A stretch of 64,000 bases of DNA from Candidatus Moraniibacteriota bacterium. GTDB taxonomy: Bacteria > Patescibacteriota > Minisyncoccia > Moranbacterales > UBA1568. Location of the stretch: the NCBI GenBank assembly GCA_028711705.1, contig JAQTRS010000003.1, positions 109,966 to 173,965 of the forward strand. The letters run 5' to 3'. The notes beneath the pieces are model-generated. The model had not been told where the DNA came from and ran no database searches. It saw only the letters and a program-made list of their open reading frames with translations. Within the stretch, counting starts at the first letter, position 1. Each line of letters starts with the position of its first letter. This document shows positions 26,340-45,100 of the stretch, piece by piece. Position numbers and translations under genes: made by a program.

Positions 26340-27977
26340 ATGATGCAGATTATTTTTGGAGCCGCTGCTTTGAATTTTTTGGTGGGAGTCCTTCTTCTCA
26401 TCCAGAGGCGGCGTACGAAGGAAATAATCGCTTTCGGTGTCTTCTCTTTGATAACCGGCGTTTGGGGTCTATCGAATTTTCTTATTTACTATTACAACAG
26501 CGGCGTGTTTTTGGAGTCGGCCTATGCCTTCGGTGCCCTTACGGCGTCTTCGATGTTGGCCTGGTCATTTTTATATAAGCAAGGGTCGAATCGCACGAAC
26601 GTGGCGATTTTTATATATGCCTTGGGCATACTCATTTTCTGCCTTTCTTACGTCAATGGGTATGCTATTGGTGATATTCGTGGTATCACGGCAAGCGGCG
26701 TCGATGCCGATCCAGGATTATTTTCCGACGAGTATTCACTCTTTGTACTGGTGTCGCTGCTCTGGTCCTTGGCGAACGTGTTTTCGGTGTTCAGGAAATC
26801 TATCGGTTTTGAGCGGAAGCAGGCCCGATTGGTATTGGTTGGTCTGTTCGTATTCGTCGGAGTGACCATTATCGTGAGCGCTATCTTGCCGATTTTCGGT
26901 ATTTTGGGGTATACCAATCTCGACAGCCCGAGTTCTTTGATTTTCGTCATCTTCGTGGCATTCGCTATCGTGCGGTATCACTTCTTGGAGACACGGGTGA
27001 TTCTCGCGCAGGTGTTGGTGGGTGCTTTGGCTACCGTGTCGATCATCCAGCTTCTGAGTTCGACGACCGTGTTTGATGTGGTCATTACGATGATATCGCT
27101 TTGTATCGTCTTGGGTTTGGGGATATTTCTTGTACGGAGCGTGTTTAATGATATCCAGCACAAGAACGAGCTGCAGCGGGTGAATGTGCAGCTCAAGCGG
27201 AGCAAGCAGCGCTTGGGACAGGTAAACGAGCACCTAATGCAGCTCGATCAGGCCAAAACGGACTTTATCAATATCGCTTCCCATCAGCTCCGCACGCCTT
27301 TGGGAAGTATGCGTTGGAGCATGGAGATGATTCTTGCGGATGAGATGGGACCGATATCGGATTCAGCCAAGGATGCGCTCCGGGAGATATATGAGAATAA
27401 TCAGCGTATGGGCGATCTGGTGAATGATTTGTTGAGCGTGGCTCGCATCGAGCAGGGCAAGGTTGTGGAAAAAGCCGTAGCGACGGATATCGCGTCCGTT
27501 ATCAGCGAGGCGGTCAAGATGATGCAGCCCGAGGCGAAGCACAGGCAGATCACATTGCGATTCGATATGCCGACCAAGGATATCCCATCGATCATGGTGG
27601 CGCCGAAACGCTTTTTTGAGGTGATTCAAAACCTTATTTCCAACGCGATTAAGTACAATCGCCCAGAGGGAATGGTGATCGTCGCGATGGAAGTATCGAC
27701 ACGGCATATGCGCATTAGCGTGACGGACACAGGCATCGGTATCCCTCAATCGGAGCATGCTAAGATATTTTCGAAGTTTTTCCGTGCCGGGAACGCCTTA
27801 TCCACGAATACCGAAGGCACGGGACTGGGTCTGTTCGTGGCGAAGTCCTTTGTGGAGGAGAATGGCGGTATCATACGCTTCAAAAGCGAGGAGGGTGTGG
27901 GAACCACGTTCATTATCGAGTTGCCGATAACGGTGCCGACCGCGCAAGAGGATCAGCGCCAGGGCGAAGCGCGGTGA
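26340..27977 (+). CDS. sensor histidine kinase with N-terminal 7-8 TM domain
   Basis: About 250 aa of consecutive TM helices, then a HisKA H-box (IASHQLRTPLGSMRW) and HATPase_c (GTGLGLFVAKSF). There is no periplasmic domain and no receiver. Confidence 0.8.
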   Translation: MMQIIFGAAALNFLVGVLLLIQRRRTKEIIAFGVFSLITGVWGLSNFLIYYYNSGVFLESAYAFGALTASSMLAWSFLYKQGSNRTNVAIFIYALGILIFCLSYVNGYAIGDIRGITASGVDADPGLFSDEYSLFVLVSLLWSLANVFSVFRKSIGFERKQARLVLVGLFVFVGVTIIVSAILPIFGILGYTNLDSPSSLIFVIFVAFAIVRYHFLETRVILAQVLVGALATVSIIQLLSSTTVFDVVITMISLCIVLGLGIFLVRSVFNDIQHKNELQRVNVQLKRSKQRLGQVNEHLMQLDQAKTDFINIASHQLRTPLGSMRWSMEMILADEMGPISDSAKDALREIYENNQRMGDLVNDLLSVARIEQGKVVEKAVATDIASVISEAVKMMQPEAKHRQITLRFDMPTKDIPSIMVAPKRFFEVIQNLISNAIKYNRPEGMVIVAMEVSTRHMRISVTDTGIGIPQSEHAKIFSKFFRAGNALSTNTEGTGLGLFVAKSFVEENGGIIRFKSEEGVGTTFIIELPITVPTAQEDQRQGEAR

Positions 27978-30175: not shown

Positions 30176-30286
30176 CAGCCGAAATGTTTAGCTTTCGATC
30201 GACGGGCGATCGAGTCCGTTTGTGGATTGTGTGATATGATGCATCGGACCGGTATTGAGAGGAGTTTCATTTTTTAACGCATATGT

Positions 30287-31345
30287 ATGACTCTTTTTTC
30301 GCGGGCGAGTTTTTTGGATATCTTGTTGTTTACAAAACACCTTTCGGTGATGGTAAAGAGCGGCATTACAGTAGCCGAGTCAGTCAAATCCCTCAAGCAT
30401 CAGGCGAAAACAGGCGCTTTCAAAAGGATTCTCGATCAAGTATCGGCCGACATCGAAAACGGCGATCCTCTCGCGAAGGCACTTGCGAAGTATCCTCAGG
30501 CTTTCAGTCATTTCTATATCAATCTTATCGCTATCGGTGAAGAGTCGGGAGTGCTTCAGGAGAATTTGGATTTCCTGTCCAAGCAGTTGAGCAAGGAATA
30601 CGCGCTTCGAAAGAAAGTACAGGGCGTGCTCCTGTATCCGGCGATCGTGCTGACGGCCGCCTTTGTGATCAGCGCCCTGGTGAGCATCTTCGTTTTGCCG
30701 AAACTTGTGAATCTTTTTGAGTCTTTCGATGTCGTTTTGCCGTTATCGACGCGTATCCTCCTATCCATCGCTCATGTCATGCAATCGCATGGAGTGATCA
30801 TATTCGTAACGATTCTTGCGGCGAGCATTTTTTTTCGGGTTTTGGCTTTCGTGCCACAGATCAGAAAATGGTATCACTGGTTATTTTTGAGTATGCCGAT
30901 TATCGGGCCATTCCTGCGAAATGTATACATTTCTTCCTCGTGTCGTGATTTGGGAATGATGCTTCAGGCGGGATTATCGATCACTCGTGCGCTGCGAGTG
31001 GAGTATGACACGATAAACAATCTCGTATTCAAGGAATATGTGAAGAGTTTGCAACTTTCTATAGCAAGGGGCGGGACTTTGTCGGGCGAATTATTGACGG
31101 GGAATTTTTCGAAGATACCGCCTTTGGTTTCGAAAATGATTGAGGTCGGAGAAGGGACCGGAAAACTCGAAGAATCGCTTCTATATCTGGGGGATTTCTT
31201 CGAAGAGGAGATTGATAATACATCGAAGAATTTTTCCACTGTTTTGGAACCGATCTTGCTTTTATGTATCGGATTGGTGGTCGCATTTGTCGCGTTGGCG
31301 ATCATATCGCCGATTTATTCATTGACGGGATCTGTCCATAGGTAA
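30287..31345 (+). CDS. pilC: type IV pilus inner-membrane platform protein PilC (GspF family)
   Basis: Two GspF-type repeats and three TM segments. 352 aa. Confidence 0.85.
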   Translation: MTLFSRASFLDILLFTKHLSVMVKSGITVAESVKSLKHQAKTGAFKRILDQVSADIENGDPLAKALAKYPQAFSHFYINLIAIGEESGVLQENLDFLSKQLSKEYALRKKVQGVLLYPAIVLTAAFVISALVSIFVLPKLVNLFESFDVVLPLSTRILLSIAHVMQSHGVIIFVTILAASIFFRVLAFVPQIRKWYHWLFLSMPIIGPFLRNVYISSSCRDLGMMLQAGLSITRALRVEYDTINNLVFKEYVKSLQLSIARGGTLSGELLTGNFSKIPPLVSKMIEVGEGTGKLEESLLYLGDFFEEEIDNTSKNFSTVLEPILLLCIGLVVAFVALAIISPIYSLTGSVHR

Positions 31346-31356
31346 ACTGAGTTGCT

Positions 31357-31785
31357 ATGAAAAAAGGATTCACGCTTGTCGAGCTATTATTGGTCATCGC
31401 GCTCATTATGATTGTCGGGATGCTTTCGGCAGCTTTTTATACCCGATTCCTGATGCAGAATAATGTTATCAATACGACTACGCAATTGGTCGGCAGCCTT
31501 CGGAAAGCGCAGATGTATAGTATGATGGGAAAACGGGGCGGTTCCTGGGGTGTGGCGGCTTTTCCTGGATCGATAGTGCTGTTTCAGGGTAATTCATATG
31601 CGTCGCGCGATGAGGCTTTGGATGAAGTGTTTGTCACGAGGCCCGATATTTCTACGGGAGATTTTTCGGAAATAGTCTTTGCGAAGACGACTGGACTTCC
31701 TGATATCGCACCGACTATCGTTATTTCCGAAGGTGGCGAGACGCGTACGTTGACGGTCAGTAATCAGGGTATAGTGAGCCAATAA
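31357..31785 (+). CDS. prepilin-type N-terminal cleavage/methylation domain protein (minor pilin)
   Basis: MKKG-FTLVELLLVIALIMIV: class III signal with Gly at -1 and Glu at +5. Confidence 0.7.
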   Translation: MKKGFTLVELLLVIALIMIVGMLSAAFYTRFLMQNNVINTTTQLVGSLRKAQMYSMMGKRGGSWGVAAFPGSIVLFQGNSYASRDEALDEVFVTRPDISTGDFSEIVFAKTTGLPDIAPTIVISEGGETRTLTVSNQGIVSQ

Positions 31786-31807
31786 CTATATGACAAGGAG
31801 ATTGAAA

Positions 31808-32284
31808 ATGAATACGCGTGAGTGCAAGGGATTCTCCGTTTTGGAGATCATTTTGGCCGTGGGAATTTTCGTGGTTATGGTTTCGGGGATGGTGATCGCC
31901 GTGCTTTCAGGCATGGAGACGAACCGTCTCGGACAAGAGGAAACGGTCGCGACGGAATATACGACGGAGGGGATAGAGGCAGCCCGATCGATACGTAATC
32001 TGAATTTTTCGGCATTGAATGATACTTCCGGAACTGGCATCGATCAAGTTTCCGGCGTGTGGTCTTTTTCTGGAAACGAAAACGTGCTTGATGGGAAATA
32101 TACGAGGGTTATTTCGATCGAGAGCGTGCGGCGGGATGGTTCCGGTAATATCGTTGAGAGCGGCGGCGGTATCGATCCGGATACGAAAAAAGTGACGGTG
32201 ACGACATCATGGGCTATTTCTTCATCGAGATATGACTCGGTGGTACTGATGACATATCTTACCAACTGGAAAGCTCCGATATGA
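31808..32284 (+). CDS. prepilin-type minor pilin
   Basis: RBS aaggag, then ATG at 31808. Class III signal KG-FSVLEIILAVGIFVV. Confidence 0.65.
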   Translation: MNTRECKGFSVLEIILAVGIFVVMVSGMVIAVLSGMETNRLGQEETVATEYTTEGIEAARSIRNLNFSALNDTSGTGIDQVSGVWSFSGNENVLDGKYTRVISIESVRRDGSGNIVESGGGIDPDTKKVTVTTSWAISSSRYDSVVLMTYLTNWKAPI

Positions 32285-32829
32285 TTATGAAACATACACA
32301 GCATACTATGCGGAGAGGATTCACTTTTATCGAGGTGCTTTTGTATATGGGCATCGTTTCATTGATGCTCACAGCGATCGTTTCTTTTGCATGGGTCATT
32401 ATCGATGCGGGAGTGAAGAGCGCTACGCAACAGGAAGTTTACGCCACGACAAGATATGTGAGCGAGCGGCTGATGTATGAAATCAGGAACGCTGCCGGTA
32501 TCGATGTTTCCGATTTCGATGTGAATCTTGCAAGTGATGAGACGAAAAATTGTTCTTTGGCGCAAGAGGGAACAAGTGAGTCGCTCCGTATCTTCGTGTC
32601 GAATAACCAAGTATTTATGAGGCTCCCTTCTTTGGAGATTGTCCCTTTGCAATCGACGGATACGAAAGTGACGAATCTTACCTTTACAGACTATTCTTCC
32701 GGTGATAGCAAGGCAAAATACGTCGGGTTTGTTTTGACGGTAGAGTCGAATTATCCGGGTGCAGCAGGACGGCAGGAATATCAGGAAAGCGTTACGATAC
32801 GATCCGGTGTCGAAGTGAGAAGTCATTAA
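32281..32829 (+). CDS. prepilin-type minor pilin
   Basis: Class III signal RRG-FTFIEVLLYMGIVSLML. The start overlaps the previous stop (ATGA). Confidence 0.65.
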   Translation: MIMKHTQHTMRRGFTFIEVLLYMGIVSLMLTAIVSFAWVIIDAGVKSATQQEVYATTRYVSERLMYEIRNAAGIDVSDFDVNLASDETKNCSLAQEGTSESLRIFVSNNQVFMRLPSLEIVPLQSTDTKVTNLTFTDYSSGDSKAKYVGFVLTVESNYPGAAGRQEYQESVTIRSGVEVRSH

Positions 32830-32879
32830 TCGTGTGCGAAGAGCGGGGTATTTTGTGACTTATTATAACAAACGAAGGT

Positions 32880-33254
32880 ATGAACAAAGGTTTTATTGCC
32901 ATGACAACCGTATTGATCCTTTCTGTGGCGATGGTCGCGATTATGACCACGGTGTCTTTGCTCTCTATCGGGGAATCGCAATCAGGATTCGCTTTGATGA
33001 AAGGGGAGGGCGCTTTACAATTTTCGGAAGGTTGCGCCGAGGATGCGCTGCTGCGTATTCGTGCCGATGAAGCCTATATTGGAGGCACTTTTTCTCATCC
33101 GGAAGGCGAATGCACGGCGGATATCGCTTCGGACGGGAGTATTAAAACAATCACGGTACGATCGAACGCTGTTGATTATAGCCGAAGCATCTCGATCATG
33201 CTTGAGCGGACGGTGACAGGTATTACGCTCATAAGCTGGCACGAGATACCGTAA
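32880..33254 (+). CDS. pilin-like membrane-anchored protein (PilX-like minor pilin candidate)
   Basis: MNKG-FIAMTTVLILSVAMVAIM hydrophobic N-terminus, lacking Glu at +5. Assigned by operon position. Confidence 0.4.
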   Translation: MNKGFIAMTTVLILSVAMVAIMTTVSLLSIGESQSGFALMKGEGALQFSEGCAEDALLRIRADEAYIGGTFSHPEGECTADIASDGSIKTITVRSNAVDYSRSISIMLERTVTGITLISWHEIP

Positions 33255-33337
33255 GCAATTGCCTTAATTTTCATTGTTATGGAAAGCTTGAGTAACACAG
33301 GGTTTATAAATTTCCAGAAAAACGATGAAGATATGGT

Positions 33338-34711
33338 ATGATATCGTATATGGGCATATTTTCAAAACAAAAAAACATCATCTTTATTTCCCATTCACGC
33401 TTGCGTGCAGTGCAGGTGAATCTGGGGCGTGCCAATGCAGGGAAGGTGATCGAGGATATCGTATGGAACAAAGAGACATTGCCATCGATACTTTCGGTTA
33501 TCCGTACAAAAATTGGGAGCGATATCCAGCTCGCACTAAGCGAAGATTTGGTATACGTCGTAAGTTTCGCTTTGAAAAACGCGACGAAATACACCCGTCT
33601 GACGATAAAGCAGGAGGCTTCGAGCTTTATCCCTGAGAATTTAGACGAGGTGCCTTGGGATTTCCGCAGTATCGCTGCTATCGTCGGCGATAAGCGTATC
33701 GGTGTCAGCAAGGGGGTGCAGGTAGCAGCGGTTTCGAAAGTTTTCCTGCACGACATCGCGCCGGCATTCGTATCGGCCGGTTTCGTGGTGGAGGCGATGG
33801 AGGCTGAATCATGCGCTTTAGCAAGACTGATGCATGATCAGGCCAGTCCGATACTTATCGTGCATACGGACCATGATAGAACCCTGCTAGTTATTCTTGA
33901 GCGCGGCGTCGTAATGGCAACACAAAATTTTGCGGAATCCATACATTCGGATGATATCGAGAGGTTCATAAGTTCGGCGCAGAAACATTTTTCATTGCGT
34001 ATCGCATCGGTTATTTTTTCCGAAGAATCGACGAAATCGCTCGGCGATGTGAGGGATTCGCTTCAGAGCAAGGGCTTTTCGGTGCAAGAGGCTTCTTTTG
34101 ACCCTATTCTCGGTCTTGCTTTGAAAAAAGATATCAGAGGAAATGATGCAGACGTATTGAATGTCAATCTGCTACCTCAAGAGAAACGAAACTTTTTGAG
34201 CCTCATACGGAGCCCTCGTGAAAAGCGATTACTGATCATTTTTTTTATTGTTTTTATCCTCGGATCGGTTGCAGTATCTGGGATGTTTATGTTTAATCGT
34301 TCAGTAAAGGCACCGATAAAGCAGGAGTCTGTCATAGCGGATATTCCTATTGAGGTTGCGAAACCCTCTGTGCCGCAAGATAATGCAGACGGTCTTGTGC
34401 CTCCATCCGGATCTGGTGCTGTCGCTGATTATGCGATCAGCATTCTTAATGGAAGTGGCATCCGGGGTGAGGCAGCCGGAGTAGAGAAGTTGGTTCGTGC
34501 GGAAGGCGCGACAAAGGTCCGTATCGGCAATGCAGATAACAATTCGTATACCAAAACCAAGATACGGGCAAAAAAAACCGTGCCTCCTTCGATGTCTCAA
34601 TCGATTGTGAAGGTATTGTCTTCGCGTTACGTTGTGGAAGATGTCGAAATATTGGATGATGGTGCGGAAGATGATATTATGGTAATAGTTGGCAGTCAAA
34701 AAAACGAATAA
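33338..34711 (+). CDS. PilM-PilN fusion protein with C-terminal LytR_C-like domain
   Basis: About 280 aa of cytoplasmic PilM-like region, then the PilN hallmark LNVNLLPQEKR immediately before a TM helix (LLIIFFIVFILGSVAVSGMF). The C-terminal segment (ADYAISILNGSGIRGEAAGVEKLV...VKVLSSRY) resembles the LytR_C domain. Confidence 0.55.
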   Translation: MISYMGIFSKQKNIIFISHSRLRAVQVNLGRANAGKVIEDIVWNKETLPSILSVIRTKIGSDIQLALSEDLVYVVSFALKNATKYTRLTIKQEASSFIPENLDEVPWDFRSIAAIVGDKRIGVSKGVQVAAVSKVFLHDIAPAFVSAGFVVEAMEAESCALARLMHDQASPILIVHTDHDRTLLVILERGVVMATQNFAESIHSDDIERFISSAQKHFSLRIASVIFSEESTKSLGDVRDSLQSKGFSVQEASFDPILGLALKKDIRGNDADVLNVNLLPQEKRNFLSLIRSPREKRLLIIFFIVFILGSVAVSGMFMFNRSVKAPIKQESVIADIPIEVAKPSVPQDNADGLVPPSGSGAVADYAISILNGSGIRGEAAGVEKLVRAEGATKVRIGNADNNSYTKTKIRAKKTVPPSMSQSIVKVLSSRYVVEDVEILDDGAEDDIMVIVGSQKNE

Positions 34712-34724
34712 AAGGATATATTTT

Positions 34725-35201
34725 ATGAAGCAGTCTGGTTTTCGGACAGAAAAAGGATTCACTCTTATCGAACTTCTTTTGGTGATAGGGATTATTTCAG
34801 TTTTGGCAGTCGTTGTGTTCGTTGCGCTTGATCCCGCGAAACGATTTGCGGATGCGCGTGATGCGAGGCGAAATTCCGATGTCCAAAATATCCTCAGCGC
34901 TATCCATCAATATATTATCGACAACAAAGGCGCTTTGCCTTCCGGACTCGGTACGACTGAAAATCAGATCGGCACGGCTACTTCCGGATGCGGCCTCGTG
35001 GCGGGCGAGTGCAATGTTGGTGCCACCGCCTGTCTCGATATGTCCGCTAATTTGGCGAAGTATCTCAAGTCGATACCGACCGATCCGCAGAACGGTACGG
35101 CTGGTACGACGCATTATTCCGTTCAAACAGATGTTAATGGCATCGTGACCGTACGCGCATGTGATACGGAAGGAACGACTGCTATCTCGATTTCGCGCTG
35201 A
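34725..35201 (+). CDS. type IV pilin (major pilin candidate)
   Basis: Class III signal KG-FTLIELLLVIGIISVLAVVVFVALDPAKRF. C-terminal Cys pair (CGLVAGECNVGATAC) for a disulfide loop. Paralog of the 48002 gene. Confidence 0.75.
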   Translation: MKQSGFRTEKGFTLIELLLVIGIISVLAVVVFVALDPAKRFADARDARRNSDVQNILSAIHQYIIDNKGALPSGLGTTENQIGTATSGCGLVAGECNVGATACLDMSANLAKYLKSIPTDPQNGTAGTTHYSVQTDVNGIVTVRACDTEGTTAISISR

Positions 35202-35291
35202 TCACAGGTACAAACTTTTAATGTCACCTCTGGCTGTGTGTTTTGGCGAGGGAGAGTCTTGTGCGCCGATTGCTAAATTCTCGATCGATAC

Positions 35292-36365
35292 ATGACCATG
35301 CATCAATCCATACGAACCTCTATTCAGAAACTCTTTTCCTTGCAGGTCGGTTTTTTTCTTATTCTCGCTTTGCCTGCGAGTACGAATTATAAGTTGAAGG
35401 ATTTCGGTATCGGAAGCGGCGGTTCCTCGACAGCTGCTTCCGCGAATTATAAGGCGGATGTAATAAGCGGCGAAACGGATAATGGCAACCTTACCGGAAC
35501 GACGTATAATTTAGGAACCGGACTTGCGTTTACCAATCAGGCCGATGTTCCGGCGGCGCCGACATTCACCAACCCGAGTAACTATTACAATAAGCTCAAG
35601 ATCGTTCTTGACGCGTCGAGCAATGCGACGGATACGAAATTCGCGATCGCTATCAGCCCCGATGATTTCGTGACGACGTACTATGTGCAAAGCGACGCCG
35701 CTATCGGTATGACATTGGGATCCGAGGACTATCAAACCTCTACCGGCTGGGGGAGTGCATCCGGGACGATCATCATCGGTTTGACGCCGAATACGACCTA
35801 TAAAGCGAAAGTAAAGGCGATGCAGGGGGATTTCACGGAAACGGGCTATGGGCCGATCGCCACCGCATCCACGATCAATCCGACTATGACCTTCGATATC
35901 GACGTATCGGCAACGGATACGGATACCAGTCCGCCATTCACGATCAATCTCGGTGACTTAATAGCCAGCACTATCACGGACGGGCCCCAGAAAATATGGG
36001 TTGATTTCTCGACCAACGGGGAGCTTGGCGGACGGGTGTATGTGGTCGCGCAAAATGCGGGGTTGCAAAGTGTTGCGGCGAGCTACAAAATCAATGCGGT
36101 TACAGGAAATCTCTCTGCCTTACCGCAAGGATTCGGTGCGCAGGGATCCTCGGTGGCTAATGGATTATCGATTGCTACGCTGTATGATCTTTCGGGGGAT
36201 AATGTCGGTGTGACAGATACCAACATCCGTGAAATATTTTCTTCAACGTCTCCGACGACAGGAGGACGAGGGTCATTTCTTCTCAAGGCGAAGTCGGCAG
36301 CCACTACGCCATCAGCGAGCGATTATGCGGAAACACTTACTGTTATCGCATCCGCAAGTTTCTGA
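35292..36365 (+). CDS. secreted Thr/Ser-rich surface protein (paralog A1)
   Basis: Signal peptide and a beta-rich T/S/G/N-rich body. C-terminal motif SDYAETLTVIASASF, shared with the 36469 protein (TDYTDTLTVVAAGRF). Confidence 0.55.
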   Translation: MTMHQSIRTSIQKLFSLQVGFFLILALPASTNYKLKDFGIGSGGSSTAASANYKADVISGETDNGNLTGTTYNLGTGLAFTNQADVPAAPTFTNPSNYYNKLKIVLDASSNATDTKFAIAISPDDFVTTYYVQSDAAIGMTLGSEDYQTSTGWGSASGTIIIGLTPNTTYKAKVKAMQGDFTETGYGPIATASTINPTMTFDIDVSATDTDTSPPFTINLGDLIASTITDGPQKIWVDFSTNGELGGRVYVVAQNAGLQSVAASYKINAVTGNLSALPQGFGAQGSSVANGLSIATLYDLSGDNVGVTDTNIREIFSSTSPTTGGRGSFLLKAKSAATTPSASDYAETLTVIASASF

Positions 36366-36468
36366 TTCATGTTCTTTGACAGTATTTTCGTGCATGTTAT
36401 ACTGTAATAAATTAGGTATAAAAATAAAATAAAACAATATGTACCGTGAGATATCCTTAGGAAATGGC

Positions 36469-37497
36469 ATGCGCAAAATCTCTTTCAGCAGCATAGTTGT
36501 TTTCGTTTTGGTTTTGATTCTACCGATACTTTTTTCCGAAGAAGCTCATGCTGCCGGTTTGCAGCAGGCCTATGTCCGCCTCGATCGTTTGGCGGATGGT
36601 GCTACGACCGGGGGGATGGTGTGCGCCAAGTCCGCTACCGCTTCGGTAGAAACGACCGTCAAAGTTACGTTCCCGTCCGGTTTCGCCACGGTGGATACTC
36701 CGGCCAATTGGACGGTGACTACGACTAATATCCCTGCGGATGCGACAGCGTGGATCGGTATCGGTACCGCTTCGGCGGCTTCTGGTCAGGATGTCACGTT
36801 CCCGAGCGGCGATATGGTAGTGGGCACGCTGTATTGCTTCAACTTTACGGGGACAAGCACGCTGACAAACGCCTCTGCTGCGAATAATCTGGTAGGTACG
36901 ATCACGACGCAACTCGCCGGCCCGACTGCTATCGATAGTTCGAGTTATGCACTGTCTATCGTTACGAATGATCAAATCGTCGTATCTGCATCCGTACCTG
37001 CGACATTCTCTTTCGCTTTGAGTGGAAATACTGATACTATGGGTACGTTGTCCACTACGACCGCTTCTTCTACTGGTAAGACCGTGACCATCGGAACTAA
37101 CGCCGCAAGCGGATGGGTGGCCTGGGTTAAAAGCGCCAACGCCGCATTGAATTCTGCCTCGACCGGTGCAACTATCGCTACGGCCGGAACGGTGAATAAT
37201 GCTCCATCGGATCTGGCTGCGCTTACCGGGTATGTGTTGGACGTTGACGTCACGACCGATAGTGCCACTGGTACGGGTTCTGTAACTCAGGCTTCTGATT
37301 ACGGTGCGGAATATAATGGAACCAATACGACTTCCGGAGGTACGCTTTCGACAACCTTCCAGCCGATCGCCGCTTCGAGCGGAACGACCGATGGGGATGT
37401 GCTGACCCTCATAGAACGTGCGAAGATCAGCGCTGTCCAGGGCGCTGCCACCGACTATACGGATACCTTGACCGTGGTGGCTGCCGGACGCTTTTAG
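36469..37497 (+). CDS. secreted Thr/Ser-rich surface protein (paralog A2)
   Basis: Signal peptide MRKISFSSIVVFVLVLILPILFSEEAHA. Same composition and C-terminal motif as the 35292 protein. Confidence 0.55.
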   Translation: MRKISFSSIVVFVLVLILPILFSEEAHAAGLQQAYVRLDRLADGATTGGMVCAKSATASVETTVKVTFPSGFATVDTPANWTVTTTNIPADATAWIGIGTASAASGQDVTFPSGDMVVGTLYCFNFTGTSTLTNASAANNLVGTITTQLAGPTAIDSSSYALSIVTNDQIVVSASVPATFSFALSGNTDTMGTLSTTTASSTGKTVTIGTNAASGWVAWVKSANAALNSASTGATIATAGTVNNAPSDLAALTGYVLDVDVTTDSATGTGSVTQASDYGAEYNGTNTTSGGTLSTTFQPIAASSGTTDGDVLTLIERAKISAVQGAATDYTDTLTVVAAGRF

Positions 37498-37568
37498 GCT
37501 CAAGATATGGTATATATAAAAGGATTCCGGTTCCGTCGGAATCCTTTTTACTTTGAGAGAATGTTCGG

Positions 37569-38651
37569 TTGTTGTATACTGGTGATATTATGAATCATAT
37601 GCGCTTCCAGAATAACAAAGCACTCTTTTTAGGTCTTGTTTTTGTTTTCATCCTCATCCTTTTTCCGTTACCGTCCTCTGCTGCCGATGGCAGTCTTCAT
37701 CTCGTCACATCGCCGTTGCCTATCAACCTGGTCACGACACCAGGCTCTTCCGTCACGACCCCTATCAAGATCAAAAACGGAGGCACACAAACAGAACAGC
37801 TCAAGATTACCTTGATGAAATTCAAGGCCTATGAATCCAATGGGCAACCGCAATTGATGGATCCGGAACCGACGGACGATTTCCTTACATGGGCTTCTTT
37901 TTCAGAAGATACGTTCACTGCTGCTCCCGATGAATGGAAAACTATCACCGCAACCTTCAATGTCCCGCAGGATGCGGCATTCGGATACTATTATGCTATT
38001 GTTTTTTCGCGTGCTCATGATGAAATTCCGACCGATTCGAAACAGACGGCCGTTGTGGGAGGCACCGCCGTTTTAGTGCTCCTCGAGGCCCGTGTCGATG
38101 ATGCGAAACGCTCCGTCGAGGTGACTGAATTCAGCACGGACAAGCAGATCTATGAATTCCTCCCGGCAACATTTACTGTCAAGCTCAAAAATACCGGCAG
38201 CGTTCATGTCGCGCCAAGAGGCAATATCTTCATCAACAAAGGAGATGAACATGACGTCGCGCTGCTTGAGATCAATGCCAATAAGGGGAATATCTTGCCC
38301 AATTCGACGAGAGATTTTAAGGAACCCTGGAAGGATGCTTTTCCGGTGTATGTGGAAAAAAAGCAGGATGGGAAAGTGGTCCTGGATGAAGCCGGCAACC
38401 AGGTGATGGAGCTTGTATGGGACTTCGGACAGGCTTCCAAACTCAGGTGGGGAAAGTATACCGCCAAGATGCTCCTCATTTACGATGATGGTCACCGGGA
38501 TGTCCCGATCGAAGGAGAGGTCTCCTTTTGGGTGGTGCCGTGGAGGTTGATCGGTGTCGGATTGTTCATCCTTGTTTTCGTGTTGATCGGTTTGAAGAAT
38601 ACACTGCAGAATATGTGGAAAAACGTGCACGGCTGGTTTGAGAAAAAGTAG
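37569..38651 (+). CDS. cell-surface protein, signal peptide + C-terminal TM anchor (paralog B1; DUF916/DUF3324-like architecture)
   Basis: Signal peptide, an ectodomain of about 300 aa with HVAPRGNIFI, and a C-terminal TM (LIGVGLFILVFVLIGL) with a short basic tail. Confidence 0.5.
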   Translation: MLYTGDIMNHMRFQNNKALFLGLVFVFILILFPLPSSAADGSLHLVTSPLPINLVTTPGSSVTTPIKIKNGGTQTEQLKITLMKFKAYESNGQPQLMDPEPTDDFLTWASFSEDTFTAAPDEWKTITATFNVPQDAAFGYYYAIVFSRAHDEIPTDSKQTAVVGGTAVLVLLEARVDDAKRSVEVTEFSTDKQIYEFLPATFTVKLKNTGSVHVAPRGNIFINKGDEHDVALLEINANKGNILPNSTRDFKEPWKDAFPVYVEKKQDGKVVLDEAGNQVMELVWDFGQASKLRWGKYTAKMLLIYDDGHRDVPIEGEVSFWVVPWRLIGVGLFILVFVLIGLKNTLQNMWKNVHGWFEKK

Positions 38652-38678
38652 GGTATAACAGTTGTATACTCAAATAGA

Positions 38679-39653
38679 ATGATGCGAATACGAATAATGG
38701 CAGGGAGGATATTTTTTGTGGCAAGCACGCTGTCTTGCTTCTTTGCGAGCCCGTTTTCCGCATGGGCTGATGAGGATCAAAAGGGGATATCGGTGAGCCC
38801 GATGTTTCAGGAAATATCGCTGGGCGAAGGACAATCGAGTCAGACATTTTCTATCGAAGCGTTCAATACGACCGATACCCTGATCACGCTGCGGTTGTCG
38901 GTGCTTGATTTCGGATCATTGGACGAGTCTGGCGGCGTGGCTTTTTTGGGTGCCGAACAGAACTTCGAAAAGCAGTACAGTATCGCTTCCTGGATACGGC
39001 TCGATCGCGACGCTCTGGTGCTCGGACCGGGCGAATCGCAGTCTGTTCAGGTAACCTTTGAAAACCGGGACTCGCTTTCTCCTGGCGGGCATTATGGCGC
39101 CGTCGTATTCAAGGTGGAGAATAGCGGTTCAGATACGGTGGATGAGAATGGCAAATCCAAGATCGCTATCAGCCAATCGTTTTCATCGCTCGTCTTCGCG
39201 AAGAAAGTCGGAGGGGTGCTCTATGATCTCAATATGCGCAGCGTTGAGAGAGAGACGAACTGGTTTCATCTGCCAGCAAGTATCACGACGCGCTTCCAGA
39301 ACAAGGGCAATGTGCACGTGGTACCACGAGGAACAATCGTTGTGACGGATCCTTTGGGAAAGGTTGTACAGAAGGGGGTTATCAATCCGGAGTCGGCCAT
39401 CATTTTGCCCGAAACATTCCGTTCGTACGTGACGCGACCGGTACTTTTAGGAGCCGCCCTTGTTCCGGGATACTATACGCTCACGACACAGTACCGCTAT
39501 GACGGGCGAGATGATGTCATTACGCATAGCTTTCGTTTTACGTATGTGCCGTTTTTTGAAATAGTCCCGATGATCGTGCTGCTCGGAGGTTTCGTGTGGT
39601 GGCGAAAGAAGAAAGTGGGCGCTGAAAAATCGAAAGTGAACCGTAGCGCATAG
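38679..39653 (+). CDS. cell-surface protein paralog B2
   Basis: Same architecture as the 37569 protein: HVVPRGTIVV, C-terminal TM IVPMIVLLGGFVWW and a KKK tail. Confidence 0.5.
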   Translation: MMRIRIMAGRIFFVASTLSCFFASPFSAWADEDQKGISVSPMFQEISLGEGQSSQTFSIEAFNTTDTLITLRLSVLDFGSLDESGGVAFLGAEQNFEKQYSIASWIRLDRDALVLGPGESQSVQVTFENRDSLSPGGHYGAVVFKVENSGSDTVDENGKSKIAISQSFSSLVFAKKVGGVLYDLNMRSVERETNWFHLPASITTRFQNKGNVHVVPRGTIVVTDPLGKVVQKGVINPESAIILPETFRSYVTRPVLLGAALVPGYYTLTTQYRYDGRDDVITHSFRFTYVPFFEIVPMIVLLGGFVWWRKKKVGAEKSKVNRSA

Positions 39654-39656
39654 CCT

Positions 39657-40286
39657 ATGAATGAAGAAGATATTCCTGAAGCAAAGCCGAAAAATATGGT
39701 GAAAAAGTTAGTATTCCTTTTGATGTGCGCGGCCATGTTTGCCGGCGTATGGATGGTGACGCGGATGCAACAACCTTCTCAGGGAGTCATCAGGAAGAGT
39801 CCGACACAAGTGAGTAGCGTGACAGCTCCGCCTCAGGAGAAGATCCGCCTCGAGGGAGAGTATCTTTCATTCGCGCATCTTTCTTCGTATACGCCGGTGG
39901 CGAAGCTTGAAGAATCAGAAGCGAAAGACGGAGAAGTTTCTGTCAAAAAACCGGGAGCATTCTTGCAATCCGATTTCCTTATCGCTTATACGGCCGCATC
40001 GTCCAAAAAAATAGCCGTTTCCGTAGAGTCCTTGCCGAGCAGCAATCTTGAGGATAATGCTTCGTTCAAATTTCGTATTTCGAGCCCAAAACTGTATACT
40101 CAAAGTATGGCTGATATCGGCAAAGAAAAAGTGATTCTCTTTGTGCGGGATGGGGATACGCGCGAGCAGTCGGTGTTTCTGAGACATAATGCTTTGGTGG
40201 TGCCGGTCGTTCTTTCCTCATCAAATACGAGTTTGGAATCTATGCGAGAGGAACTTCTGGCGATTGCCAACAGTGTCGAATGGTAA
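39657..40286 (+). CDS. membrane-anchored hypothetical protein
   Basis: N-terminal TM (LVFLLMCAAMFAGVWMV), then a soluble domain of about 170 aa. No recognised motif. Confidence 0.45.
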   Translation: MNEEDIPEAKPKNMVKKLVFLLMCAAMFAGVWMVTRMQQPSQGVIRKSPTQVSSVTAPPQEKIRLEGEYLSFAHLSSYTPVAKLEESEAKDGEVSVKKPGAFLQSDFLIAYTAASSKKIAVSVESLPSSNLEDNASFKFRISSPKLYTQSMADIGKEKVILFVRDGDTREQSVFLRHNALVVPVVLSSSNTSLESMREELLAIANSVEW

Positions 40287-40314
40287 TAGAGGCATTAAGT
40301 CAGTGTGCGAACGT

Positions 40315-41790
40315 ATGAAAAATAAAAAACAATTACAAAGAGCGAGGAAGTGGATGCGTCTGCACGTCGTTTTGACAGCGATCGCATTCGGGGTGTATTT
40401 TTTGGCGGCTTTTTTGTACAGTCCCCATTTTTTTCTCGTTGATCTGAAGGATAAAATATATGCCTTGGCGGATACAATCGGTGTGACCGCACGGGTTTTG
40501 GATGCGCCGGTTAAGCCGGTTGTGAGCGTTACGACGACATGCGATACCATTAAGGGAGAACTCTCCGTTACGGCAGATTGGGCGGATGATGAGAATTCAT
40601 ATACGTATGATATGTTTCGCGGTGGGAGTTTGCTTATGACCAACCTTACAAACTCATCATACAAGGATACCAATGTCACTGTTGGGACGAATTATGAGTA
40701 TTTCGTGGTAGCGAATGGGCCGATGGGTCCGGGAACGGCCACGTCCGATACCGTATCCATCACGACGCCTGCGGAGTGTATAAGGGTATTACCGAGTCCT
40801 TTGGTAGCGGCGACATCTATCGGTACTATGGATATCGCCGGACAATCCGGTGGGGCGCAGACGCTTGATCAGACCCCGTTGTTCTCCGGTACGACCAATA
40901 TTCCATTTGCTATTATCGATATCGTGGTTCATAGTAATGAAACTGTAGTGTTGCAGACAATCGCAAATGCTAATGGGTATTGGGAAATAGAGTCCCCTGT
41001 ACAGCTATCTTTCGGAGAACATACGATATATATCACTGCGACCGATCCTTCCGATAGTACGCGCACAGCAACGTATAATATCGTATTTTATGTGAATCAG
41101 GTGACAGCAGTGTCTGATAGCGATAGCGGGAATACGAGTAGTCATAGGAAGGCATCGCGATCACGGACGGTTTCGACCGCGTCTTCTTTATCTACGAAAC
41201 AATCATCGATACATACGATACCGACTTCGCCGGTCACGCCAGTTCTCATTCCTTTCGATTTCATTCTGCGTACTGAGGGCGACAATAGAACTTTTTTTCA
41301 GGGAAAAACGATCAGTGCGGAAGTAGCCATTACTCGGGTTGATGCGAATAATGCTTCTGCAGGAGGAACGATTCGTTATGCGCTTACGGATGGGGATGGC
41401 AATGCGGTCATATCTGTCGAAAAATCGATAGAAGGCTTGAGGGCAGGCAAAGTGATACGGGAAAGCATTCCGCTTCCTGCTGACTTGAAACAGGGTGAGT
41501 ATGTGTTGCTTGTTGAGTTTTCGAGTGGGAAATTCACTATCGTGAGGACGATGGATATTTCCGTTATGGAGCTGCCTTTGTCTGATCTTGGTGGCGGAGT
41601 TGTCATTACGTATCCGCAATTCGTGCGCAACATCGGATGGATCGCCTTCCTTTCACTCACATTATTGCTAGGATGGTTTTTGCTTTGGATCCGCGAATAT
41701 TGGTTGTACGCGCATGCAGCGCAGCATGTTGCTGAGAGGAATTTGGCTGGAAAAGGCCTTATAACGAAGAGAAAGGGGGTGTCTTCATAA
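40315..41790 (+). CDS. membrane protein with FN3/Ig-like extracellular domains
   Basis: N-terminal TM. FN3-like segment (YTYDMFRGGSLLMTNLTNSSYKDTNVTVGTNYEYFVVANG). C-terminal TM IGWIAFLSLTLLLGWFLLWI. ATG 40315 is preferred over the overlapping upstream start. Confidence 0.5.
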   Translation: MKNKKQLQRARKWMRLHVVLTAIAFGVYFLAAFLYSPHFFLVDLKDKIYALADTIGVTARVLDAPVKPVVSVTTTCDTIKGELSVTADWADDENSYTYDMFRGGSLLMTNLTNSSYKDTNVTVGTNYEYFVVANGPMGPGTATSDTVSITTPAECIRVLPSPLVAATSIGTMDIAGQSGGAQTLDQTPLFSGTTNIPFAIIDIVVHSNETVVLQTIANANGYWEIESPVQLSFGEHTIYITATDPSDSTRTATYNIVFYVNQVTAVSDSDSGNTSSHRKASRSRTVSTASSLSTKQSSIHTIPTSPVTPVLIPFDFILRTEGDNRTFFQGKTISAEVAITRVDANNASAGGTIRYALTDGDGNAVISVEKSIEGLRAGKVIRESIPLPADLKQGEYVLLVEFSSGKFTIVRTMDISVMELPLSDLGGGVVITYPQFVRNIGWIAFLSLTLLLGWFLLWIREYWLYAHAAQHVAERNLAGKGLITKRKGVSS

Positions 41791-41791
41791 T

Positions 41792-42109
41792 ATGGAAACT
41801 TTTTTAGTGGTAGCCGAGGCGATGACGATATTGGCGGCGATGATGTCGATAGTGTATACGGTTGGTATCGTATGGCGGGTGGAAAAAGAACTTGATGTGT
41901 CATATAAATTTTTCGCATTCGCTATCGTGTTTTTTTTGATTGCCGAACTTCTGAACGTGTATTATGTTGGACATGGTGTAAGCTTTGCTGTGGCTGAAAA
42001 ATTGAGCAAGGTCGTGTTTTCTGCATTGTTTTTGGTCGGGACCCTCTATATGCGCGATATTATCCGAAAACTCGACGGTGAAAAGCGGAAACAAAAGGGT
42101 AGGAAATAG
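41792..42109 (+). CDS. small membrane protein (hypothetical)
   Basis: 105 aa with three hydrophobic segments and a basic tail. No motif recognised. Confidence 0.35.
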   Translation: METFLVVAEAMTILAAMMSIVYTVGIVWRVEKELDVSYKFFAFAIVFFLIAELLNVYYVGHGVSFAVAEKLSKVVFSALFLVGTLYMRDIIRKLDGEKRKQKGRK

Positions 42110-42195
42110 CCACAAAAAGTACGTGTATCAAAAATCCGGCAATCGACCGGATTTTTTCATTTTTTATTTGTTGCGCCGATGTATTTTATGGTATT

Positions 42196-45100
42196 ATGAA
42201 GGAGGAAAATCATACAAAAATGAAGAACACATATCGATTCCGGTTTCTGGCATTTCTCGCTATCTTTTTAGTGGTTGGTTTTTTTGTTTCTACTCAGGAG
42301 TATTCGTTTGCGGCGACCGGTACGAACAAGAAAATAAATTTTCAAGGAAAGGTGGTCAATAGCAACGGAACTAATGTTGCTAACGGATCATACGGCTTTA
42401 TTTTCAGCATTTATACCGTTTCAAGCGGTGGCGCGAATGTGTGGACGGAAAGCAAATCCCTGACCGTGACCGACGGTATTTTCCAGACTGACTTAGGGGA
42501 TGTTACTACGCTTCCAGGATCTATCGACTTCAATACGGACAACATTTACCTTGGTATCAATTTCAACGGTGATGGCGAGATGTCGCCACGTGTGCAATTC
42601 GATGCCGTTCCTCAGGCATTCAACGCTCAGAAAGTAGCAGGACTTACAGTAACCGACACGACGGGCACACTGACGATTCCGAATGGTAAAACCATTTCTT
42701 TCGCGGATACTTTTTCAACTTCCGGTGCTTTCGCAACGACGCTTACTGCAACCGGAACAACCACTGTGACGCTTCCGACCACCGGGACACTTGCGACGTT
42801 ATCAGGCAGTGAGATTTTGAACAACAAAACCATCGGAAGCGCAGGCCTTATTTTTTCGGGAGCGGCTACGGATATCACGACTACTTCTGGAGAATCATTG
42901 GTGATTGTTGCGGCCGGTGCAGGAACGGTAGATATTCAGGACGCCACTACCGTTGACTCGCTTACCGCGGATACGGGGGGTATTTCTATTGCCGCCGGTC
43001 AATCGTATACGGGTTCGGGCGCGGTGACGCTTTCATCAGGAGGTGCTGCCGGTCTGACGATCGATTCTGCATCAGATGTGCTTACAGTGGCCACGGGAGA
43101 CTATCTTGCACTGAGTCATTCCGGCGTTGCGAGCGCCGCGGCAGGATATATCTGGTATGATTCGGGGGATAATAAATTCAAGATCAACGAAAACGGTACG
43201 ACCAAGACGTTATGTAATCTTACAGACGGTGGCTGCGGATCGGGTGGCGCGAGCGATCTGCAGACAACGTATGGTAATGATGCTGATGGATCGAATGCTA
43301 CGATTTCACTGACGGCTGCCGATGATGGTTTGGTCTTCACTAATCCGACCTCCGGTGGTACGGATGCGAGCTCTTTCCTTGCTTATTTCAACCAGCAGAA
43401 TACGACGGCCGCTGTATCGGCAGTCGATATTACTCAGGCTTCCAATGCTTCCAATGCGGTCAATATTACAGCCAATGCTATCGATGGCGAGATAGGACTT
43501 GATATCACGGCTAACGGTCTGACGTCGGGTAAGGGTATAGATGTCTCGTCATCATCGACTGCATTTACAGGCAATCTTTCCAATATATCTTTGACAGGAT
43601 CCAGTGCTGCTAATACCGGTAATGTGCTTGCGGTGTCAAATACTGGTACGGCGAATGCTAACACCTCGTTTTTTATCAATCATCAGGCAACTGGAACTGG
43701 CAATCTCGCTATGCGCGTGGATGATCAATCAAGTGATGCGACGCCGTTCGTTATCGATGGCAATGGCAATGTCGGCATCCAAACGAGTGCGCCTACAGAT
43801 GCTCTTCAGGTGGGAAGTGCGACGAATCGTGCCAATATGACAGCTTATGGTGATATTACGGCGGAAGGATATGATGTCCAACGCAGTCTGGCCGGCATCA
43901 TTGATATCTTTGTGTATGATACGACGCGTGATGCGGATGGCGGGGAATGGCGCAACTCGATCATTTCACAGCAGATGTCTTGGGCGACGGAAACCAAAGA
44001 TGATGGTATCGGCGATGCTTGCGATATCGCAGCTGATGATCGCTGCGGCAAGTCGATTTTTCCTCGTAAGGCGATTATAGCTACTACAGCGAGCGGCCTG
44101 TATATTTTTGATGGTGCGGACAATTCGCTATGGATGAAGTTTACCCAAGCAGGTACGTATGCTTTGGGTGCAGATACGAATAATAACCCGACAGGAGTGG
44201 GTGCGCAGAATGGTGTCATAGTAGTCGGAACCAATGGCACATCGGCTACCGGTATGTACGCTTTCGATTTTAAGCAGGATGCGATGTATCGTTATGATGC
44301 AACGAATCGCGTGCAGGGTGATAAAAATATCGGCAATCGAAATTCGACGGTGTCCTACGCGACCAATGCGAATACAAATTTTGCTCTTGTGAACTCGGTT
44401 GTTAATGATGTTTCGATCGCACTCATCACTTCATCGACTGAAGGTATGATCAACACGTTGACGCTACCATTAGATAGCGCAACAAGTCCGATGCGAGGCG
44501 TGACGCTTATTGCTGCAGCGACGGATACGGGGGTTTCCGTCGTCAATACTGCCAATCAAAGAGTGTTTAGTTATTCGGAAACGACAAACGATGACTATAA
44601 TCAGGTTGTCATCACAAGCCGTGGAAGGATGTATGCGACCAATGAGACCCAGCAGCAATTAGAAGAATGGAGAAATATCGATAGGGATGTGGCATCGGAA
44701 CTCAACGGAAACCCGGATCGATTCTATGATCAGACTGTCGGACGATCACCTATTACAACAGGAACGGCACCGACTATTTCCACTTCGCCCGGAACCCTTG
44801 CCGTTATCGAACGAAACTCAGCTGCTCGCGAATCAGCTGCTACAACCCTTCTTGAGACTGGTGATATCGTTTTTGTCGGTACGGATCAGGGTTTGGCCGA
44901 AGTGCATACTTCGGGAGGAAGCCTTGTTGGCGCCGCATGGTCCAAAATAACAACTTCGACGGTAGCGACTCCGTATATGGTCGGCGCTGCACGCTCAGTC
45001 TATCTTTTTGAGGAGGCTGCCGGTTCGACGGTCGCAGCAAGTTCTATCGGTGCGGCCGGTACGACCAATAACCCACTTAGATCAGCAGTGACAGGAACTG

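Follow-up and report, generated by a model that had tools for sequence, protein, structure and literature searches.

The question raised by the four adjacent genes at positions 35,292 to 39,653 of a 64,000-nucleotide (nt) stretch of Candidatus Moranbacteria DNA, the whole of which is called the window below, is what kind of surface structure is encoded by two pairs of exported proteins, designated A1, A2, B1 and B2. Bacteria of the Candidate Phyla Radiation (CPR) are tiny episymbionts whose cells lack an outer membrane; attachment to the host is central to them and is mostly credited to type IV pili. A preliminary description of this DNA had proposed two tandem pairs of paralogs, one secreted and one anchored at the C-terminus, forming a two-component surface complex with variant alleles. 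The analysis reported here leads, with moderate confidence, to the reading that the four genes are the core of an usher-free, chaperone-assisted surface filament built by donor-strand exchange, similar to the Pam pilus. A donor-strand filament in CPR bacteria was shown in 2026 in one Saccharimonadia species (10.64898/2026.03.03.709456).

All four open reading frames (ORFs) were present on the plus strand at the coordinates given in Table 1. A1, A2 and B1 were 100% identical to GenBank entries PHT88_03435, PHT88_03440 and PHT88_03445 of a Candidatus Moranbacteria metagenome-assembled genome (MAG), on a contig of 176,858 bp, each labelled "hypothetical protein". The annotated starts were followed for B1 (37590, MNHMRF, rather than a TTG at 37569) and for A2 (36469; the mechanical ORF starts at 36439). 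Sec-type signal peptides were read from the sequence of all four proteins.

B1 comprises a signal peptide, two immunoglobulin (Ig)-like domains (residues 39-168 and 177-316), a transmembrane (TM) helix from residue 319 and a basic tail, with residue numbers following a 354-residue AlphaFold2 (AF2) model begun one codon before the ATG, at nt 37587. That model (predicted local distance difference test, pLDDT, 82.4) consisted of a signal helix, the two domains as beta-sandwiches, and a C-terminal helix at 319-353. B2 has a signal peptide (...SAWA/DE), two Ig-like domains, a TM helix and an RKKK tail, and lacks an insertion of about 35 amino acids (aa) found in domain 2 of B1 (residues 254-288). 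The anchoring scheme that had been proposed as common to the two was recovered, both ending in a hydrophobic helix and a basic tail (...LIGVGLFILVFVLIGLKNTLQNMWKNVHGWFEKK in B1 and ...IVPMIVLLGGFVWWRKKKVGAEKSKVNRSA in B2). BLASTP with compositional adjustment aligned B1 and B2 over 199 aa (22% identity, E = 6e-12), and hhalign of the two families, with 45-46 orthologs each, gave a probability of 99.8% (E = 1.9e-30), the 279 aligned columns taking in the two domains as well as the TM region. Judged by sequence, B1 and B2 are full-length paralogs.

A Foldseek search of the PDB with the B1 model placed 9i25_C, an Enterococcus faecium WxLIP bound to a long WxL protein, at the top (E = 7.8e-10) together with 9i1y, followed by the pilus chaperones CfaA, CsuC and YadV and then by RbmA. 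The literature search found no paper describing 9i25 or 9i1y. For a comparison of sequences, the WxLIP proteins of eight annotated WxL clusters from Firmicute plasmids were aligned; against these the B2-family profile reached a hhalign probability of 98.2% (E = 5e-14, 256 columns) and the B1-family profile 95.9% (E = 5e-9). The likeness of the anchored proteins to DUF916/DUF3324 proteins, suggested at first from their general layout, is therefore confirmed by these matches. Pfam PF06030 (WxLIP_PGBD, formerly DUF916) matched 35 of 46 B2-family members below threshold at E <= 1 (best E = 2.6e-5), and B2 itself at E = 0.0056 with 17.1 bits, below the gathering cut-off of 27.3. In the Pfam search B1 had no PF06030 match, and PF11797 was not among the families listed. 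The top PDB sequence-profile match of the B2 family was EfmWxLIP1 (E = 0.32), and PDB profile searches with the A or B families gave no match besides WxLIP.

WxLIP proteins, which combine PF06030, PF11797 (DUF3324) and a TM helix and are known, with WxL-domain proteins, from Lactobacillales and Bacillales, share with the B proteins a signal peptide, two Ig-like domains, a TM helix, a basic tail and a length of 320-365 aa, and differ from them in several respects. The Pfam gathering thresholds were not reached by B1 and B2. The motif NQIDKxxxYFDLK, conserved near the N-terminus of WxLIP domain 1 (PMC10599100) and kept in the Firmicute alignment, was not found in either protein, where the aligned segments were LVTSPLPINL (B1) and ISVSPMFQEISL (B2), that is, TSPLPINL or VSPxFQE at this position. 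Conversely, B1 and B2 carry an HVxPRG motif (HVAPRGNI and HVVPRGTI, respectively) that WxLIP lacks. On these grounds B1 and B2 are placed as a divergent CPR branch, unlike ordinary WxLIPs.

The kinship of the A proteins was more restricted. In A1 the signal peptide (residues about 1-30) leads into an NY/GSGG module (residues 26-83, nt 35367-35540), an FN3-like domain (residues about 88-190, with a weak fn3 match at 125-181), and a linker with a C-terminal domain (residues 192-357, nt 35865-36362) whose C-terminus reads ...SDYAETLTVIASASF, the last residues being ...DYAETLTVIASASF; the protein has no cysteine. In A2 the signal peptide (residues 1-28, ...EEAHA/AG) is followed by a conserved N-terminal strand, AGLQQAYVRLDRL, an N-terminal Ig-like domain (residues 29-161, nt 36553-36951) with Cys52 and Cys123, a highly conserved linker, NDQIVVSASVPATFSFALSG (residues 167-186, nt 36967-37026), and a C-terminal domain (residues 187-342) whose C-terminus reads ...TDYTDTLTVVAAGRF and ends in ...DYTDTLTVVAAGRF. 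BLASTP aligned the last 45 aa of A1 and A2 only (E = 1e-4), and the relationship was visible through family profiles, at a hhalign probability of 93% (E = 2.9e-7) with Moranbacteria-only alignments and of 99.3% (E = 2.6e-20) with diverse alignments that included Saccharimonadia. The match (A1 192-357 with A2 173-342) is limited to the inter-domain linker and the C-terminal domain (about 165 aa), while the N-terminal halves differ, with the NY/GSGG module of about 55 aa and the FN3-like domain in A1 against a single Ig-like sandwich with a conserved cysteine pair in A2. A1 and A2 are therefore paralogous in their C-terminal halves only. Of the two proposed paralog pairs, the B pair thus stands over its full length and the A pair over its C-terminal half, the N-terminal half being excluded; the sequence motifs quoted for both pairs were all found.

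At E <= 1e-3, 951 homologs were obtained for A1 and 1808 for A2, the best 120 listed being 60-78% and 67-86% identical, respectively, and A2 was the most conserved of the four proteins. The invariant sites of A2 in the diverse alignment fall into four clusters, namely the YVRLDR strand right after the cleavage site, the linker (family consensus DDQIVVxAxVPPTFNFxLxGNTD), TNAxxGWxAW, and the C-terminus (DYTDTxTVxxAGxF). The C-terminal residue was F or Y in all 41 A2-family members and in all 82 A-family members. The DDQIVV part of the linker is absent from A1. In the AF2 model of A2 the N-terminal domain was confident (pLDDT about 80-90) and residues 164-342 were below 50; Foldseek with this model returned generic Ig-like matches to the N-terminal domain only, and no meaningful match to A2, used as a single sequence or as a profile, came from sequence searches of Pfam, NCBIfam and the PDB. 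The N-terminal module of A1 and its orthologs shows an internal repeat, (S/T)xNY(x)L...G.GSGG...SxNYA..G..GE...Y..G.G, immediately downstream of the signal peptide, and could be a receptor-binding tip or cap.

It might be supposed that the four are unrelated Thr/Ser-rich surface proteins which resemble each other in composition only, as T, S, N, G and A together account for 50% of A1 and 56% of A2 (against 30-34% in B1 and B2) and as BLASTP joined A1 and A2 over just 45 aa. Such a reading is refuted, and has practically no chance of being correct, by the profile matches within both pairs, by the B1/B2 BLASTP match obtained under compositional adjustment, and by the conserved order of the genes. 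The preliminary description had named purely compositional similarity as the outcome that would overturn it, and neither BLASTP nor the family-profile comparison by hhalign gave that outcome.

Conservation of the module was assessed by a scan with the B1 alignment against one genome per GTDB species, which gave 79 loci from Moranbacteria and Saccharimonadia with B1 identities of 43% to 68%; the proteins of the window were then mapped by BLASTP onto all ORFs of these loci. The order A1-A2-B1-B2 was kept in 51 of the 55 loci that had sufficient flanking sequence, in two CPR classes, and a gene for a giant fibre-like protein lay downstream in 47 of 50 such loci. A1 and B2 were always single-copy, whereas A2 and B1 occurred once or twice (two copies in 10 and 24 of 51 loci, respectively). 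Two copies of A2 were seen at loci L007, L011, L016, L026, L038, L058, L059, L063, L068, L072 and L077. Each of the four proteins has separate orthologs, in the same order, in Moranbacteria and in Saccharimonadia. Distinct ortholog sets in a fixed order in both groups indicate old, specialised paralogs with distinct roles, and the suggestion of variant alleles could not be maintained, given the different N-terminal architectures of A1 and A2, the identity of about 22% between B1 and B2, and the occurrence of each with its own orthologs in two classes. The pairing of a secreted with an anchored partner does describe the gene module fairly.

Nearly all named homologs and loci were assigned to Moranbacteria, Saccharimonadia or Patescibacteria, with a few MAGs labelled otherwise that have the same module. 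Many third-party annotation metagenome assemblies in which the module occurs (55-67% identity) bear the titles "uncultured Bdellovibrionales", "Gammaproteobacteria", "Terrimonas" or "Limnocylindria"; the oddly titled assemblies include L004, L006-L010, L012, L013, L016, L018 and L021-L023. These organism titles look wrong for contigs that resemble Moranbacteria or Saccharimonadia.

The closest parallel to this set of parts is the Pam pilus. In Candidatus Mycosynbacter amalyticus, a CPR bacterium of the Saccharimonadia, cryo-electron microscopy and mass spectrometry demonstrated thin filaments that are polymers of PamA (55.3 kDa) and PamB (38.7 kDa), with PDB entries 25PZ and 25QA. The pilins are described as Sec-secreted, two-domain proteins of about 38 kDa, in which a beta-sandwich N-terminal domain is joined by a conserved, donated linker strand to an open, truncated Ig-like C-terminal domain that takes up the linker of the neighbouring subunit, and conservation in PamA/B peaks in the linker and in the binding site of the C-terminal domain (10.64898/2026.03.03.709456). 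The pam operon (QHN43268-43274, gene order C-B-R-D-E-A-T) further encodes PamE, the tip pilin PamT (25.6 kDa), the tether PamR, built of two FnIII domains and a C-terminal TM helix, and the PapD/FimC-like chaperones PamC and PamD, which are paralogs of about 36-37 kDa with a C-terminal TM helix each and an extra beta-hairpin in PamD; a tail-fibre-like gene is a conserved neighbour (10.64898/2026.03.03.709456). The preprint makes no mention of WxL, DUF916 or Moranbacteria. Its Supplementary Table 1 labels QHN42421.1 (119 kDa, beside pilM) as pamC, while PamC in its text is the PapD-like chaperone, and an unlabelled protein of 36.5 kDa, QHN43268.1, directly precedes pamB in the same table; the pamC label is probably a slip.

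Likeness to Pam was judged on the parts list and molecular weights given in the preprint. Both systems occur in CPR bacteria, which lack an outer membrane, and do without an usher, and every component has a Sec signal peptide. Both have subunits of about 35-39 kDa with an Ig-like N-terminal domain containing paired cysteines, a conserved linker and a C-terminal domain, and in A2, as reported for PamA/B, conservation peaks in the linker and the C-terminal motifs. Both have two paralogous, two-domain PapD-like proteins of about 36-40 kDa with a C-terminal TM helix each (B1 and B2 at 353 and 324 aa, the Pam chaperones at 36.5-37.4 kDa), one of which carries an insertion the size of a beta-hairpin (B1 here, PamD there), and in both a giant tail-fibre-like gene adjoins the operon. 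No separate PamR-like gene was present; candidates for its role are B2 and the second B1 copy of 24 of 51 loci, which have its layout of two domains and a C-terminal TM helix, and RbmA was among the fold matches of B1; two B1 copies together with B2 would parallel PamC, PamD and PamR. In these terms the Pam parts list maps closely onto A2, A1, B1/B2 and the giant gene.

A direct sequence match was provided by A1, residues 26-83 of which matched positions 24-82 of the NCBIfam model NF058579 (CPR_pilus_PamT) at E = 4e-6 and 26.4 bits. The model matched 27 of 41 A1-family members (best E = 2e-8), and in the three proteins for which the stretch was reported the match was confined to the N-terminal module of PamT. 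Other or full-length Pam matches were sought at the Saccharimonadia locus L049 and in ten proteins of the A type at six further Saccharimonadia loci, and a hidden Markov model of the A1 N-terminal module was run over the 2280 ORFs of the 79 loci; each search returned A1 orthologs only. Besides the differences weighed further below, the module departs from Pam in that the PamT-like A1 has 357 aa with an inserted FN3 domain as against 25.6 kDa for PamT, that A2, B1 and B2 have no family-level match to Pam models, that its lineage, Moranbacteria, is absent from the preprint, and that it lies here within a type IV pilus cluster and not beside ATP synthase. Because of the PapD-like fold of the B proteins, the PamT module in A1 and the parallel parts list, a filament is judged likelier than the static two-component complex of the preliminary description, of which the secreted and anchored module is retained.

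The relation to WxLIP calls for the main rival explanation to be weighed, namely a non-filamentous, wall- or membrane-bound adhesion complex of WxL type in which the membrane proteins B1 and B2 hold A1 and A2 at the cell surface by their C-terminal domains, and the Ig/FN3 domains and the giant protein bind the host. In essence this is the two-component complex of the preliminary description. B1 and B2 are sequence-level homologs of WxLIP, the top Foldseek match of the B1 model is a WxLIP bound to a WxL protein, and the published WxL/WxLIP model is that of a wall-bound platform. In both systems at least two secreted proteins whose conserved domain of about 170 aa is strictly C-terminal are encoded adjacently, and Firmicute clusters also pair two or three WxL proteins with one WxLIP. 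The part shared by A1 and A2 has the size and position of a WxL domain (160-190 aa, strictly C-terminal), being about 165-175 aa long and running to the last residue in both.

The A proteins nevertheless could not be shown to contain the domain itself. Of the two W-x-L motifs, A2 has GWVAWV for the first and TLTVV, without tryptophan, for the second, and A1 lacks the tryptophan at both. A Pfam search for WxL (PF13731) at E <= 10 gave no match in A1, A2 or 36 A2-family members; hhalign of the A family against 12 annotated small WxL proteins gave a probability below 1%; and with trimmed domains the score of 13.7-15.2 was reached by 4-7 of 60 column shuffles. A forced alignment was colinear motif for motif (TNAxxGWxAW with RGTxxGWxL, and DYTDTLTVV with YxTTLTWxL). 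The candidate identification of the A C-terminal domain as a WxL homolog was rejected as unsupported by Pfam, by full-alignment hhalign and by trimmed hhalign with shuffles, the colinear alignment notwithstanding; a distant relationship is conceivable. The CPR cluster further differs from the Firmicute ones in having no LPXTG protein or sortase, in having two or three WxLIP-like genes instead of one, and in belonging to CPR bacteria and not to Firmicutes. With the PamT module and the Pam-like parts list on the side of a filament, the non-filamentous complex is considered rather unlikely. The two explanations are not exclusive, as the strand insertion of WxLIP into WxL is the same chemistry as chaperone-subunit complementation.

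WxL clusters on three Firmicute plasmids (L080 2161-6708, L087 2113-6666 and L085 2359-5864) have a layout like that of a pilus operon, with a large adhesin, a small LPXTG protein, three WxL proteins and a WxLIP, and a class A sortase in two of the three (L080 and L087). This layout fits WxL systems as assembled structures rather than loose wall binders.

For the filament, the following mechanism is proposed. A1, A2, B1 and B2 would be exported by Sec, as their signal peptides indicate, and B1 and B2 would be held in the cytoplasmic membrane by the C-terminal helix, displaying the two-domain PapD-like/WxLIP-like ectodomain that the predicted fold and profile homology suggest. Donor-strand complementation may follow, with B supplying a beta-strand to the presumably incomplete C-terminal domain of a newly exported A subunit. 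This step is modelled on the chaperones of chaperone-usher systems, on the WxLIP-WxL complex 9i25, in which a WxLIP was crystallised with its bound WxL protein, and on the AlphaFold models of PamC/D; strand-insertion binding is proposed for WxLIP too, a beta-hairpin strand of which is predicted to enter the WxL protein (PMC10599100). The candidate donor strand is the last strand of domain 1 (GGTAVLVLLEA in B1, SSLVFAKK in B2 and YVVALLLR in WxLIP), which follows a low-confidence loop. The B strand would be swapped for the inter-domain linker strand of the next A2 (...DDQIVVxAxVPPTFNFxL...), and by this exchange A2 would polymerise head to tail into a thin linear fibre. A1, with a putative acceptor C-terminal domain, the PamT-like module, an FN3 domain and no DDQIVV, may be the first, distal or capping subunit. 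The fibre may be terminated and tethered to the membrane, as proposed for PamR, by B2 or by the second B1 gene that about half of the genomes carry, in which case that protein would not serve as a second chaperone. The giant fibre protein is the likely host-binding partner, and the function would be the attachment of the episymbiotic cell to its host or to surfaces.

The role of major subunit suits A2, which, as expected of such a protein, is the most conserved of the four, is duplicated at some loci and is bracketed by expression signals. The promoter-like site directly upstream of A2 (TTGACA, 16 nt, TG-TATACT) has 11 of 12 matches and an extended -10 TG and is the best sigma-70-like site in 34600-42300; a terminator-like hairpin with a T-tract follows just after the stop codon, with a longer stem possible by sequence (GGATTCCG/CGGAATCC). 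Together these would allow A2 to be expressed above its neighbours, an arrangement that may hint weakly at a major structural subunit. The failure of AF2 to fold the C-terminal domain of A2 would also fit, weakly, a domain that is completed by a partner's strand.

The proposed assembly resembles that of Gram-negative chaperone-usher pili in three ways. Domain 1 of the B proteins has a long hydrophobic last strand and a flexible loop reminiscent of the G1 donor strand and the F1-G1 loop, the A subunits end in a conserved strand with an invariant aromatic C-terminal residue, and donor-strand complementation and exchange are proposed for A and B. It differs in that the CPR system has neither an outer membrane nor an usher gene, that the proposed B chaperones are anchored in the cytoplasmic membrane and those of chaperone-usher pili are soluble periplasmic proteins, that the A proteins have two domains and a presumed donor strand in the internal linker instead of an N-terminal extension, and that there is no detectable sequence similarity.

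Several observations weigh against a Pam-like filament. Of the named Pam proteins only PamT shows a sequence link, which covers its N-terminal module of about 55 aa, and A1 is not a PamT equivalog, its 26.4 bits comparing with a cut-off of 240 bits and its 357 aa including an extra FN3 domain. A2, B1 and B2 matched no Pam model in NCBIfam, a library that may have no models of PamA-D. The subunit genes come first in A1-A2-B1-B2, as against C-B-R-D-E-A-T in pam, and there is no 55-kDa PamA-like pilin and no clear PamR gene. The C-terminal domain of the A proteins was left unmodelled by AF2, and complementation and exchange are steps that we infer. The promoter and terminator are consensus matches only, and the number of such sites in the region was not above the shuffled expectation. 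Lastly, WxLIP/WxL systems, to which B1 and B2 are closest in sequence, are at present described as wall-bound adhesion complexes (PMC10599100, PMC9772566) and not as filaments.

Table 1. Positions, in the window, of the four module genes, of the signals around A2 and of neighbouring genes.
Feature	Position (nt)	Strand	Basis or remark
PilB	28460-30175	+	
PilC	30287-31345	+	
Four pseudopilins		+	in type IV pilus cluster upstream of module
PilM-like protein fused to LytR_C domain	33338-34711	+	
Pilin upstream of A1	34689-35201	+	
A1, 357 aa, secreted, proposed as tip or minor subunit	35292-36365	+	ORF, family profiles
Promoter-like site directly upstream of A2	36376-36403	+	consensus match
A2, secreted 342-aa protein, proposed major subunit	36469-37497	+	ORF, family profiles
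Terminator-like hairpin and T-tract just after A2 stop	37529-37553	+	GGTTCCGTCGGAATC then CTTTTTACTT
B1, membrane-anchored 353-aa protein, PapD-like/WxLIP-like fold, proposed chaperone	37590-38651	+	AF2 model, profiles
B2, 324-aa B1 paralog, proposed second chaperone or membrane tether	38679-39653	+	BLASTP, hhalign
g209, 209-aa protein, one N-terminal TM segment	39657-40286	+	ORF, synteny
g533, Big_13 membrane protein	about 40315-41790		Pfam
g105, 105-aa membrane protein	after g533 (pair spans 40315-42109)		
Giant secreted fibre-like protein, 1924 aa	42196-47970	+	Laminin_G_3, E = 7e-12
Second pilin, downstream of giant gene	47981-48478	+	

The genomic neighbourhood (Table 1) brings up a further explanation. 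A complete-looking type IV pilus set (28460-35201 and 47981-48478) surrounds the module on the same strand, so that A1, A2, B1 and B2 might be type IV pilus accessories, with secreted cargo or pilus-associated adhesins on the one hand and membrane assembly factors on the other. Of the 79 related loci, however, just 7 had type IV pilus genes beside the module. These 7 were all from Moranbacteria and none from Saccharimonadia, whereas A1-A2-B1-B2-giant stayed together. The type IV pilus neighbourhood is therefore lineage-specific. The A and B proteins also carry Sec-type signal peptides rather than prepilin (GFxxxE) leaders, and the B proteins are folded like PapD-type chaperones, a group that plays no part in type IV pili. 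An accessory role in the type IV pilus is accordingly regarded as very improbable.

Among the nearer genes, the giant protein has, besides its Laminin_G_3 domain, a weak N-terminal match (E = 1e-3) to Bdello_MAT_N, of the "mosaic adhesive trimer" of Bdellovibrio, a chimeric fibre family, and a phage spike-fibre domain is found in its ortholog at L049 (10271-14170). The giant protein is a probable adhesin working with the filament, and its gene is probably the "tail fibre-like protein" noted by the Pam preprint as a conserved neighbour. The gene g209 usually accompanies the module, after B2 in Moranbacteria and before A1 in Saccharimonadia; its product had no significant Pfam or NCBIfam match and a family column identity of about 30%, and could be an assembly factor or anchor. 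Saccharimonadia-type examples of about 200 aa are at L056 4007-4594 and L069 4883-5470. The pair g533 and g105 shifts in position and orientation, lying on the reverse strand upstream at L015, L033 and L047 and upstream at L002, L039 and L041, and is regarded as rather loosely associated and not core.

Farther upstream (20810-27977) are three sensor histidine kinase genes, with CHASE4-HAMP-PAS, PAS-PAS-HisKA-HATPase and HisKA-HATPase architectures and an aminotransferase gene between the second and the third; the kinases may regulate surface-appendage genes. No usher was found by Pfam among the ORFs scanned in 20.8-50.5 kb, where the matches above gathering thresholds were to type IV pilus, sensor-kinase, aminotransferase, Big_13, LamG, LytR_C and beta-lactamase domains only.

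Structures of two known kinds, the Pam pilus of the 2026 preprint and the WxL/WxLIP clusters, thus frame these results; what is new here is an unannotated module, with a composition and gene order unlike those of the pam operon, in a class outside that preprint. A related four-gene module is strongly conserved across Moranbacteria and Saccharimonadia with its genes annotated as "hypothetical". The analysis also supplies a statistically supported sequence bridge, not present in the Pam preprint, that joins the anchored B proteins of CPR bacteria with the WxLIP of enterococci, listeriae and lactobacilli.

It is a speculative and, on balance, doubtful idea that WxL/WxLIP clusters, CPR Pam pili and Gram-negative chaperone-usher pili form one ancient donor-strand assembly superfamily, with the CPR module as the link. 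If it were true, WxLIP and B1/B2 would be chaperones of PapD type anchored in the membrane, both the WxL domain and the C-terminal domain of the A proteins would be "pilin" domains with an incomplete fold, and the usher-free, membrane-tethered form of monoderms would be the ancestral state. Gram-positive WxL proteins would then polymerise or pass by strand exchange, and not merely stick to peptidoglycan. Should the bridge reflect a shared mechanism, it would change the approach to the WxL clusters of virulence and adhesion and would open a route to the origin of chaperone-usher pili.

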